Shown: piece after piece, positions 53,655 through 55,562 of the stretch
Layout of the letters: each line of letters begins with the position of its first letter
Numbering within the stretch: the stretch's first letter is position 1
From: Syntrophales bacterium
Lineage (GTDB): Bacteria > Desulfobacterota > Syntrophia > Syntrophales > PHBD01
NCBI GenBank assembly: GCA_963668175.1
Contig: OY764159.1
Coordinates: 128,001 to 192,000 of the forward strand
Length of the DNA stretch: 64,000 bases
Direction of reading: 5' to 3'
The notes under the pieces: generated by a model
Told to the model about the DNA's origin: nothing
What the model saw: only the letters and a program-made list of their open reading frames with translations
Databases searched by the model: none
Made by a program: the position numbers and the translations under genes

Positions 53655-55562
53655 ATGCCTCCGGGCAAGAAGAACATTTTCACCGGTCAGGGAACGACCG
53701 GTGATCCGGGTACGATCAAGCCGACCACCGACATGGATCGGTCGACGAAACAGATAGGCAAACTGACGGATGAATACGACAAGGAAGTCGTCTTTGTGAT
53801 CTGGAAATTCAAGGGTATATCCAGTTGCGGACACGCTGCGCTCAAGCTGAAAAGACTCGATGAGCAGGACAAGAAGGTAAAAAATTTCGAATACATCAGC
53901 TGGTGGCCCAAGTCTTCGGATTTAATTAACACGGACAAAGTACAGCAAATCAATCGGAACCCTGTGCTTACGCCATTGAGGGTTCTTCAGCCGAGGATGG
54001 GGGAAGGCCATAAGGATTACTGGACGGACGAAGAGGCGGAGCTGTCTTCGGACAAACAGATCGCCATATTTCTATCATTCCTCTATCGGGCCTGCAATGA
54101 CGAACGTCCGGCACTGGTTAAAAAATACCTGGAATCATACTGGCAGGGGGACAAAAAAAAGGACGGCACCGAAGGCGAGCAATGCCAGGCGTGGCGAGCC
54201 ATGGGCTTTACGGAAAACTTCGGCAACATGGAGACGATGATCGCCCAGGGCAGGATCGGCCTCGGGGCGCGGCAGAAGGTACAGAAGAACACACGCTATG
54301 TCGACCCTGTTACAAGGAAATTCGACACTAAAAAAATACTTGATGACGTTAAACGCAGCCCGACTCTTTTAGAAATGAATCAGGAGTATCTCCTGAAGAT
54401 CGGGAAGCTGCCGGACGAGAAGATCTACCTGCCCTGTTCATACCTGACCTATAAGACCGATGACGGAACGCCCTATCGATTCGTGTGGGGACTTTCCCAG
54501 GACGCCATCAGACGTTCCTGGAGAATATTCAAGGACACGCATAACCCGCAATGGATTATGCTCACGAACAAGATCAATTGTGCTTCCGTCGCTTGGAACA
54601 GGCTGATGGACGGTTACGCCGAAGAATTACTGGAAGGCAACACAGGGGACTTGATTTCGGCCCTGCAAAGAAAGATCTATATACAGCCGAACAACATCAT
54701 CGAAATCGGCGAGAGGCTGGATAAGGCGCTGAAGAAGCTCAACGAGCAGCAGAAGAAGATCGATGAGGTTACCAACAAACATTACGCGAAAATCAGGCCG
54801 CTTGCACAGGGCGGCAAAATACTCAAAGAGTGCGAAGCCATCGCGGAGAAGTTATTCAATAAGAAAGGCATAGCCAAGGGCGTCCAGAAGAATAAAATCT
54901 ATTACGAGAACGAAAAGACCAACCTCTGGCCTCCCATGCTCCAGTCGTCATTCTGGCTCGACATCAGTAAGACGAAAAGCATGAGATCTTCATCTTTGAG
55001 GAAGATCGACGACGCGGTGAAGGCCTTTCAGGCGGTCGGCGACAAGCTCGACAGATACGAAGAGCACAGGCTGATCGCATCCATCTTACAAGACGAGAAG
55101 AGATATCTTGATCTTATCGACGAGCTTGACAAGGCCTTGAAGCAGAAGACCGTCATCCTCTTCAACGTCAGAAGCATCGAGGAGAAACTCGACGCCGTGC
55201 GGGAGATGATGAAAGTCAACTTTGTCGAGGCCACGAAGCATAAAAGGGAAAAAATCAAACAACTGATAAAGCTCCACAACGCGATTTTTCATTACGTAAA
55301 CTCTGCAAAGGATGACGACGAAAGGCTGCCCAGCGTTCTCTTTCTGGGACAATGCGTCGCCTGCGCCTTTGCCGAAACGGCGCATCACGGCGTCTACGTG
55401 CTCCTGGCGGCCTTAGATAACTCGTTTTATCCCGCTTTCTTCGAAGAAATTCTGGATAAACAGGAAGCCGTCGTGTCGCCCACGGTTTCCGTGATGGAAC
55501 ACATGCAGATTATGAAAAGCGAAATCGACCTGCCGATATCGAAATACGAATTTCCTCTGTAA
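53655..55562 (+). CDS. Candidate T6SS effector with permuted papain-like (RID/IcsB-like) domain
   Basis: GHAAL (H60), YISWWP, WGLSQDAIRRSW, KINCAS (C309); last gene of the operon. Confidence 0.65.
   Translation: MPPGKKNIFTGQGTTGDPGTIKPTTDMDRSTKQIGKLTDEYDKEVVFVIWKFKGISSCGHAALKLKRLDEQDKKVKNFEYISWWPKSSDLINTDKVQQINRNPVLTPLRVLQPRMGEGHKDYWTDEEAELSSDKQIAIFLSFLYRACNDERPALVKKYLESYWQGDKKKDGTEGEQCQAWRAMGFTENFGNMETMIAQGRIGLGARQKVQKNTRYVDPVTRKFDTKKILDDVKRSPTLLEMNQEYLLKIGKLPDEKIYLPCSYLTYKTDDGTPYRFVWGLSQDAIRRSWRIFKDTHNPQWIMLTNKINCASVAWNRLMDGYAEELLEGNTGDLISALQRKIYIQPNNIIEIGERLDKALKKLNEQQKKIDEVTNKHYAKIRPLAQGGKILKECEAIAEKLFNKKGIAKGVQKNKIYYENEKTNLWPPMLQSSFWLDISKTKSMRSSSLRKIDDAVKAFQAVGDKLDRYEEHRLIASILQDEKRYLDLIDELDKALKQKTVILFNVRSIEEKLDAVREMMKVNFVEATKHKREKIKQLIKLHNAIFHYVNSAKDDDERLPSVLFLGQCVACAFAETAHHGVYVLLAALDNSFYPAFFEEILDKQEAVVSPTVSVMEHMQIMKSEIDLPISKYEFPL

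Follow-up and report, generated by a model that had tools for sequence, protein, structure and literature searches.

What does the last gene of a type VI secretion system (T6SS) cluster in a Syntrophales bacterium encode, and against which cells would its product be directed? The question is raised by a stretch of 64,000 nucleotides of this genome (assembly GCA_963668175.1, contig OY764159.1, positions 128,001 to 192,000; hereafter the window), in which the frame 53655-55562 (+), preceded by a GGAG 9 nt ahead of its ATG, is open for 635 codons and closes a co-directional T6SS cluster. The predicted protein, P0001, had been proposed from the DNA letters alone to be related to RID, the Rho-inactivation domain of Vibrio MARTX toxins, and to IcsB of Shigella, to have no adjacent immunity gene and to act on eukaryotic cells or else on another non-self target such as archaea; we refer to this proposal as the original prediction. 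The analysis described here suggests that this bacterium injects P0001 into eukaryotic cells, and we assign a probability of about 0.6 to the reading that P0001 is a T6SS-delivered lysine fatty acyltransferase aimed at such cells.

The family of the protein is the first element of the answer. A word-indexed search over 5.8 billion proteins, in which 7,999 candidates were scored and those with E <=0.001 were kept, returned 16 proteins, including the one of the window, and all of them (16/16) carry Pfam PF27349.1 (IcsB_M) as a precomputed annotation. When a profile of these 16 close homologues (A1) was compared with 177,635 PDB sequences, the best match was 5xn7_A, the RID of the Vibrio vulnificus MARTX toxin (E 1e-5; runner-up 0.046), with GHAAL and YISWWP falling on GHAALQI and YVSWWP and the Cys motif, weak by itself, on YQLLTKNASS. 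An exhaustive HMMER search with A1 against 1.84 billion representatives gave 109 proteins at E <=0.001. Two larger profiles were then used: A2, made of P0001 and 57 of those 109 (58 sequences, fragments and lower-ranked rows excluded), and A4, made of 56 short relatives of ~330-390 aa with no member of the P0001 subfamily. They match 5xn7 at E 1.4e-27 and 1.8e-26, respectively; moreover, A4 finds the P0001 gene in the whole genome at E 1.3e-23 and the protein in the local set of 16 sequences at E 5.9e-46. Among the proteins recovered by A1 is P0075 (E 9.3e-6 in the 1.84 billion), which is 44% identical to an annotated BopA (E 2e-116) and 30% identical to an annotated IcsB (E 3e-45), and 4 of the 38 distant relatives scanned have at their N-terminus a SicP-binding domain, a feature that is typical of type III effectors. 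The proposed RID/IcsB resemblance is thus supported by three independent routes: the profile matches to 5xn7 with His and Cys aligned, the recovery of the BopA/IcsB-like P0075, and the PF27349 annotation. As far as sequence comparison can tell, the resemblance to RID exceeds chance and the assignment of P0001 to the IcsB/RID family is secure. Several other searches gave nothing of use: phmmer with the single P0001 sequence against the PDB did not find RID and had no useful match, the local Pfam and NCBIfam copies gave zero matches (the PF27349 model being absent from the local Pfam), a protein atlas offered low-score leads only, none of them for the C-terminal part, and a first A1 profile search of the genome contigs found no relative. 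Genes for icsB are carried on plasmids; tblastn of P0001 against plasmids gave zero matches.

The second element is the conservation of the putative catalytic residues. The motifs named in the original prediction were all located in the translation, with GHAAL at residues 59-63 (His60), YISWWP at 80-85, DYWTDEEAE at 121-129 (Asp125), KINCAS at 306-311 (Cys309) and IYIQPNNI at 341-348; WGLSQDAIRRSW lies at 278-289. The RID motifs named there for comparison, GHAALQI, YVSWWP, LEGLDVAAMQAEW, YQLLTKNASS and VWTPTELFNFGQAL, are likewise present in the profile alignments to 5xn7_A, whose crystallised chain reads YQLLTKNASS, with Ala where the toxin has Cys. The putative catalytic region of P0001 has two lobes separated by an insert of ~120 aa; His60, YISWWP and Asp125 lie in the first (the His lobe), and WGLS, NCAS with Cys309 and QPNN in the second (the Cys lobe). 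In the A1, A2 and A4 alignments the His falls on chain His313 and the Cys on chain position 553, 240 residues apart; since this offset equals the spacing between the catalytic residues of RID, numbered His2595 and Cys2835 (PMC12851578), His60 and Cys309 align with the RID catalytic residues. The His-then-Cys order with RID-like spacing, another point of the prediction, is found as well, the distance being 249 residues in P0001 itself. Only six columns are invariant in the 58 sequences of A2 (W50, G59, H60, P85, D125 and C309), and in A1 Cys309 occurs in all 16 sequences and His60 in every sequence that covers its region. A quick maximum-likelihood tree of the 58 sequences joins the P0001 subfamily (4 rows) and the subfamily of a second copy described below (7 rows) in one long-form clade (11/58), apart from the short forms and the type III forms (Shimodaira-Hasegawa-like approximate likelihood ratio test, SH-aLRT, 100; stem length 1.15). 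Positions are collected in Table 1.

Table 1. Positions in the window of P0001, its predicted functional regions and residues, and the neighbouring elements (+ and -, strand; point, no strand)
Feature	Position	Strand	Remarks
P0001, predicted long-form IcsB/RID-family protein, 635 aa	53655..55562	+	last gene of the T6SS cluster
Putative catalytic region, residues ~39-365	53769..54749	+	aligned by profile with residues 296-600 of the 5xn7 chain; domain 1 in the hmmsearch of P0001 with A4
His60 codon, CAC	53832..53834	+	aligned with His313 of the 5xn7 chain (RID His2595)
Asp125 codon	54027..54029	+	invariant in 58 sequences; aligned with Asp385 of the 5xn7 chain
Cys309 codon, TGT	54579..54581	+	aligned with 5xn7 chain position 553 (Ala in the crystal; RID Cys2835), +240 from the His
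C-terminal helical region, residues ~425-577	54927..55385	+	partial similarity to the membrane localization domain (four-helix bundle), ~45-aa insert
Co-directional T6SS cluster	32174..53607	+	
IglI-family T6SS gene	52444..53607	+	directly upstream of P0001, 48-nt gap; NCBIfam NF041244
Inverted repeat (hairpin) between convergent genes	55617..55664	.	shuffling test
ClpX-like AAA+ gene	55708..57450	-	convergent, outside the T6SS, not an immunity candidate

The known members of the family give the frame in which P0001 can be read. RID is described as a lysine N-epsilon fatty acyltransferase carrying a domain for membrane localization (MLD), and IcsB as an enzyme with the same chemistry (PMC6315884); Lfat1 and SidG are type IV members of the family (PMC12851578; PMC12904589), and all four are reported to act within eukaryotic cells (PMC6315884; PMC12851578; PMC12904589). 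Transfer of long acyl chains to lysine, dependent on the Cys, has been reported for RID, IcsB, Lfat1 and H10 (PMC6315884; PMC12851578; PMC13059803). H10, from the lake-sediment bacterium Desulfonatronospira thiodismutans, belongs together with H11 from Ideonella sakaiensis to an environmental IcsB-like clade lacking type III secretion systems (T3SS) described by Bajunaid et al. in 2026; in yeast it both acylates proteins and is lethal, in a way that depends on the Cys, and the authors call the function of the environmental IcsB-like proteins unclear (PMC13059803). The terms 'type VI' and 'T6SS' have 0 occurrences in the main text of that paper, and in open-access papers and bioRxiv we found no report of a lysine fatty acyltransferase tied to a T6SS.

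With RID, the best solved match, P0001 shares aligned His, Asp and Cys and an insert between the two lobes, and the MLD in the RID N-lobe resembles the C-terminal part of the P0001 family; the two differ in that RID forms an internal part of a giant toxin secreted by the type I route, with its MLD preceding the catalytic domain, whereas P0001 is a stand-alone product of a T6SS cluster in which the MLD-like part follows the catalytic one. With the T3SS effectors IcsB (Shigella) and BopA (Burkholderia) it shares Pfam PF27349 and a His-Asp-Cys triad in the same order (H145-D195-C306 in IcsB; PMC13059803), but it has no N-terminal T3SS signal or chaperone-binding domain and a different C-terminal half, and its His-to-Cys spacing is 249 as against 161 in IcsB. 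The host of H10 and the organism of the window belong to the same phylum, Thermodesulfobacteriota (that of Syntrophobacter), and the H10 clade, as it is described, is like P0001 in lacking a T3SS and the IcsB-type N-terminal domain; in H10 and H11, both of them short forms, the catalytic domain spans residues 6-239, while P0001 falls in the separate long-form clade. The Legionella Dot/Icm effectors Lfat1 (lpg1387) and SidG, set apart here by their published descriptions, differ by type IV delivery and by their inserts, an actin-binding coiled coil in Lfat1 and a far larger one in SidG (H57...C623).

The C-terminal half raises the possibility of a membrane-binding module. The A4 profile matches several MLD structures in the PDB, namely residues 85-180 of the RID chain (independent E-value, i-E, 1.7e-6), the N-terminus of TcdA (0.0016), the RTX MLD structure 2n9w solved by nuclear magnetic resonance (0.0023) and the N-terminus of TcsL (0.0042), and the A2 profile likewise matches the MLD in the RID N-lobe. 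Because A2 and A4 match the RID N-lobe and MLD structures, the wider family carries an MLD-like module after its catalytic domain, in the reverse of the RID order. The MLD is a four-helix bundle (4HBM) of MARTX, PMT and large clostridial toxins; P0001 differs in that the match is partial and its halves are split by the extra residues listed in Table 1. P0001 retains the W..S..R..ID..L helix and the ..R.P.VL.LGQ.. helix of the MLD, and its C-terminal half may be an MLD-derived bundle with an insert.

Two proteins of other clusters touch on the same module. In another genome of the phylum (G390), a canonical T6SS cluster has, between its TssG and ClpV genes, a gene for a 423-aa protein with an Ntox11 toxin domain (L032 8946-10217); this protein weakly resembles the MLD-like part of the family profile (E 7e-5), and an MLD-like module may be common to T6SS effectors of the phylum. 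An 895-aa protein of no known family, encoded after the last core gene (IglE-like) of the T6SS type of the window in its version from a Methylobacter record (L036 4823-7510), weakly matches the MLD-like part only (E 7.7e-4).

The relation of the gene to the secretion system is that of cargo. Close homologues, 50-53% identical to P0001, are encoded on three metagenome contigs (L007, L008 and L009), and in 4 of 4 loci, the window included, the RID-like gene is the last one after the IglI gene. Five further loci of the same T6SS type were considered, two in Syntrophobacter records, one in Smithella and two in Methylobacter (L019 and L020 are the same locus); none of the five has a RID-like gene within 10 kb of IglI, and no catalytic-domain match was found anywhere in those five genomes (0/5). 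Since the gene is terminal in all loci with a close homologue and missing from the five others of the same type, P0001 is cargo of the system and not part of its core, lying in or beside the cluster and yet being dispensable to it. Across the loci with close homologues, the other cluster proteins that were compared are 60-82% identical, except the 117-aa helical protein g117 (50-55%); the RID-like protein and g117 are the most diverged proteins of those clusters. The slot after IglI is also variable: a gene of the DUF6765/phospholipase C-like type occupies it in L007, one of 440 aa does so in L008, and the Smithella locus (L022) has there a 605-aa gene, after which come a VgrG-C-like gene, one for PAAR and one for a methyltransferase. 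In L007 (6785-11890 and 12145-17239) the 510-aa DUF6765/zinc-phospholipase-C-like gene is followed by a duplicate of the last 98 IglI codons, before the RID-like gene, and this duplicated 3' fragment looks like the scar of a cassette insertion. Among 400 other genomes of the phylum that were sampled, a single weak match was obtained with the long-form profile and a match in one genome (G390) with the short-form profile, and the IglI family was above its cut-off in one; given so few matches, both the T6SS and the enzyme are rare and patchy.

An immunity gene is not apparent. As had been predicted, only a hairpin and a convergent gene follow P0001: the 145-nt gap on its 3' side holds no open reading frame (ORF) that resembles a gene, and of 200 shuffles 0 were as stable as the hairpin in it (-29 kcal/mol, z -3.8); the convergent gene scores 318.6 bits for ClpX against a cut-off of 359. 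In L007 the RID-like gene is followed by three Ser/Thr kinase paralogues in tandem and in L008 by one orthologue of them, while L008 and L009 have in common a 276-aa convergent gene (92% identical) that is missing from the window and from L007. No neighbour is common to all four loci, and it is for this reason that no immunity gene can be recognised; the conserved small neighbour that marks antibacterial effector-immunity pairs was not found. The absence of an adjacent immunity gene is borne out at the window, at the three related loci and at a paralogue in the same genome, a second long-form copy of 670 aa (G000:C1:2300124-2302136; L002 1024-3036) that is 23% identical over its full length (E 5e-21) and keeps the motifs. 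Its neighbours are a GTPase gene on one side and a methyltransferase gene on the other, and it has a 79%-identical orthologue elsewhere. Proteins with ankyrin repeats or DUF676 esterase-like domains are common among effectors acting on eukaryotes; ~13 kb upstream of the 670-aa copy (L005 2482-4909) there is a gene for each kind, the ankyrin-repeat protein being 352 aa long and the DUF676 protein serine-esterase-like.

For one lineage, therefore, the accessory, T6SS-linked and immunity-less status of P0001 is well supported; from these comparisons we infer its fold geometry, chemistry, T6SS-dependent export and target. In the explanation that we prefer, P0001 would be a cargo effector of the adjacent T6SS, whose N-terminal two thirds would fold as a circularly permuted papain-like domain of the IcsB/RID family with a His60-Asp125-Cys309 triad. 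By analogy with RID, IcsB, Lfat1 and H10, a long acyl chain would be loaded from acyl-CoA onto Cys309, and His60 would help to hand it over to the lysine epsilon-amino groups of membrane-proximal proteins in the injected cell, while the helical C-terminal half, partly MLD-like, may hold the enzyme at an anionic membrane. The injected cell would most likely be eukaryotic, such as a grazing protist, and such a target would make it understandable that the producer has no need of an immunity protein. On this last point the original prediction gains from the partial MLD match and from the toxicity of the relative H10 to yeast, whereas the target itself can so far be named only as a probable one.

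Several observations weigh against this explanation, and they are best considered together with the alternatives. They concern, first of all, the C-terminal half, because the MLD resemblance of P0001 itself is only partial. In fact A3, the C-terminal profile of its own subfamily (five sequences), has no MLD match in the PDB, and hhalign of A3 with A4 joins 39 columns covering the first helix only (probability 76%, E 2.3e-5). In an hmmsearch on the 16-sequence set, A4 covers residues 39-484 of P0001 in one piece and 504-577 in a second one; this second piece, present in 15/16 subfamily members, has an i-E of 6.6e-4 in what is a tiny database. Moreover MLD-type domains bind anionic lipids, and bacteria have such lipids too.

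The anionic lipids of bacterial membranes lead to the question of whether the target could be prokaryotic. According to this alternative, P0001 would be a T6SS effector against bacteria or archaea that acylates or cleaves envelope or membrane-proximal proteins of neighbouring cells, with immunity encoded elsewhere or unneeded. Most T6SS effectors are antibacterial, and close relatives of the present T6SS occur in the records of Syntrophobacter and Smithella, which live beside methanogenic archaea. A further point against a eukaryotic target is that the authors who described the environmental IcsB-like clade consider its hosts unlikely to colonise eukaryotes (PMC13059803). We nevertheless regard a prokaryotic target as unlikely, since a conserved neighbour is absent from all four loci and from the surroundings of the paralogue, the characterised members of the family all act on proteins of eukaryotes in the accounts cited above, and all the matches of MLD type are with toxins directed at eukaryotic cells. 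Very improbable, in our estimate, is the more specific reading in which the T6SS of the window would inject a membrane-tethered lysine fatty acyltransferase into adjoining methanogens, the archaeal partners of the producer; its support consists of the missing immunity gene, the T6SS kin in the Syntrophobacter and Smithella records and the methylmalonyl-CoA genes present in the window, with nothing beyond these.

A different objection concerns the reaction and not the target. The same fold could serve another chemistry, that of a PLAAT/LRAT-like phospholipase or lipid acyltransferase, of a protease or of a deacylase: the structural neighbour of RID is the phospholipase/acyltransferase HRASLS3 (PMC6315884), the triad would also suit a protease according to the authors of the mBio study, and 4 of the 11 homologues that they tested gave no acylation signal (PMC13059803). 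The abstract of that study puts the share of tested IcsB-like proteins without acyltransferase activity at about a quarter, which speaks against the acyltransferase assignment as well. The long, well-supported branch of the long-form clade points in the same direction. On the other hand, the catalytic residues and the motifs GHAA, SWWP, D..xE, WGLS and NC of P0001 match those of proven acyltransferases, and H10, from the same phylum, is an active lysine fatty acyltransferase (PMC13059803); another chemistry thus appears to us improbable.

Finally, P0001 might not be exported at all. It might act in the cell that makes it, with a T6SS component or a co-secreted protein as a possible substrate of acylation, or have a role unrelated to the T6SS. 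Pfam and NCBIfam scans recognised no PAAR, VgrG/Hcp fusion, Rhs or MIX loading module in the protein, the 670-aa paralogue lies beside no T6SS gene, and the four T6SS-linked loci are mutually related and do not count as four independent events; all three count against the preferred explanation. Likewise, the short IcsB-like gene of G390 (L031 4594-5880) lies beside a DDE transposase and not beside a T6SS. The machine, however, does not need P0001, because all five other loci of the same type are without the gene; moreover P0001 evolves faster than the core genes, and its slot is filled by unrelated cargo-like genes in other loci. A function inside the producer is accordingly an alternative to which we give little credit, and a T6SS-delivered acyltransferase acting on eukaryotic cells is retained as the best explanation.

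The secretion system deserves a description of its own. Its cluster begins with a ClpB/ClpV-like ATPase, a TssM-like protein (1249 aa), an IglE-like lipoprotein, a 578-aa protein, TssB and TssC; it continues with a 190-aa protein, TssK, TssE, a 541-aa protein, a short VgrG-like protein (173 aa) and TssF; and it ends with DotU/TssL, g117, TssG, a Zn-ribbon protein and the IglI-family protein. TssB, TssC, TssK and TssE are all above the equivalog cut-offs of the type i system (T6SSi). At the same time, the IglI gene matches NF041244 with E 9.8e-91 (304.6 bits, cut-off 100; the match starts from residue 53 of the longest ORF), Pfam finds IglE_N in the lipoprotein, and the short VgrG is Francisella-like, though by a weak match; the ATPase scores 1167 bits for ClpB versus 789 for ClpV. 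The TssB, TssC and TssL of the Francisella type (T6SSii) are reported to be seldom matched by T6SSi profiles (PMC4793230), and T6SSii is reported to be confined to Francisella (PMC4793230; PMC12955703). Because T6SSi cut-offs are passed alongside IglI- and IglE-type parts, the system is a mosaic and not T6SSii proper; it falls outside the Francisella type. The genome, a single contig of 4.57 Mb, has a single sheath gene, and the same T6SS gene order is found in the Syntrophobacter, Smithella and Methylobacter records. Several of the cluster proteins belong to no known family, and PDB profile searches for the 190-aa and 541-aa proteins gave noise or nothing. Two candidate relations were rejected: g117 as a PAAR-like partner of P0001, as it is helical, has no Cys and occurs in all such T6SS loci with or without the RID-like gene, and a link to Francisella PdpC, encoded after iglI/iglJ, whose triad is described as MCF-like and not RID-like (PMC12955703).

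Some further genes of the window were recorded in passing. The 578-aa cluster protein (39382-41118, +) has a weak N-terminal AMP-binding/adenylation match (E 4e-6, below the cut-off) and is 36-37% identical to its counterparts in the Methylobacter clusters. Between TssG and IglI, a Cys-rich protein with several zinc-ribbon/LIM-like motifs (51570-52499, +) is kept in most such loci and might be a metal-binding spike-tip protein. About 3 kb before the T6SS cluster (27369-29268, -) there is a module encoding a VgrG-C-like protein (128 aa), a PAAR protein (127 aa; 28457-28840, the only PAAR gene of the genome) and an S-adenosylmethionine-dependent methyltransferase-like protein. The same module occurs in the Smithella locus after IglI and the 605-aa gene, with identities of 84% for PAAR, 56% for the methyltransferase and 42% for the 128-aa protein, and the PAAR-linked methyltransferase may be a PAAR-borne effector. 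A link between P0001 and nearby methyltransferases was considered and dropped: only the PAAR-linked one is kept (at the 56% just given), the rest being generic similarity. On the other side of P0001, the ClpX-like ATPase of 580 aa, with a C-terminal extension of ~170 aa, lies beside GroEL and Hsp20 genes (55708-60775, -).

Delivery of lysine fatty acyltransferase effectors is known through a type I-secreted toxin (RID), through type III secretion (IcsB and BopA) and through type IV secretion (Lfat1 and SidG). The locus offers a concrete answer on the role of the enzymes of environmental, sulfate-reducer-type bacteria, which in at least one lineage are encoded by a terminal T6SS cargo gene; in that lineage the enzyme lacks an immunity partner and may be equipped with a module for membrane targeting. 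The T6SS is itself of interest for combining canonical parts with others that had been described from Francisella only. Were the archaeal-partner reading true, P0001 would be the first known case of an effector lipidating proteins of archaea and would provide a molecular handle on syntrophic contact. If the preferred explanation is true, free-living anaerobes would use a pathogen-style weapon based on lipidation of host proteins, probably against protists, and the enzyme family would either be older than its role in pathogens of animals or have extended beyond that role.

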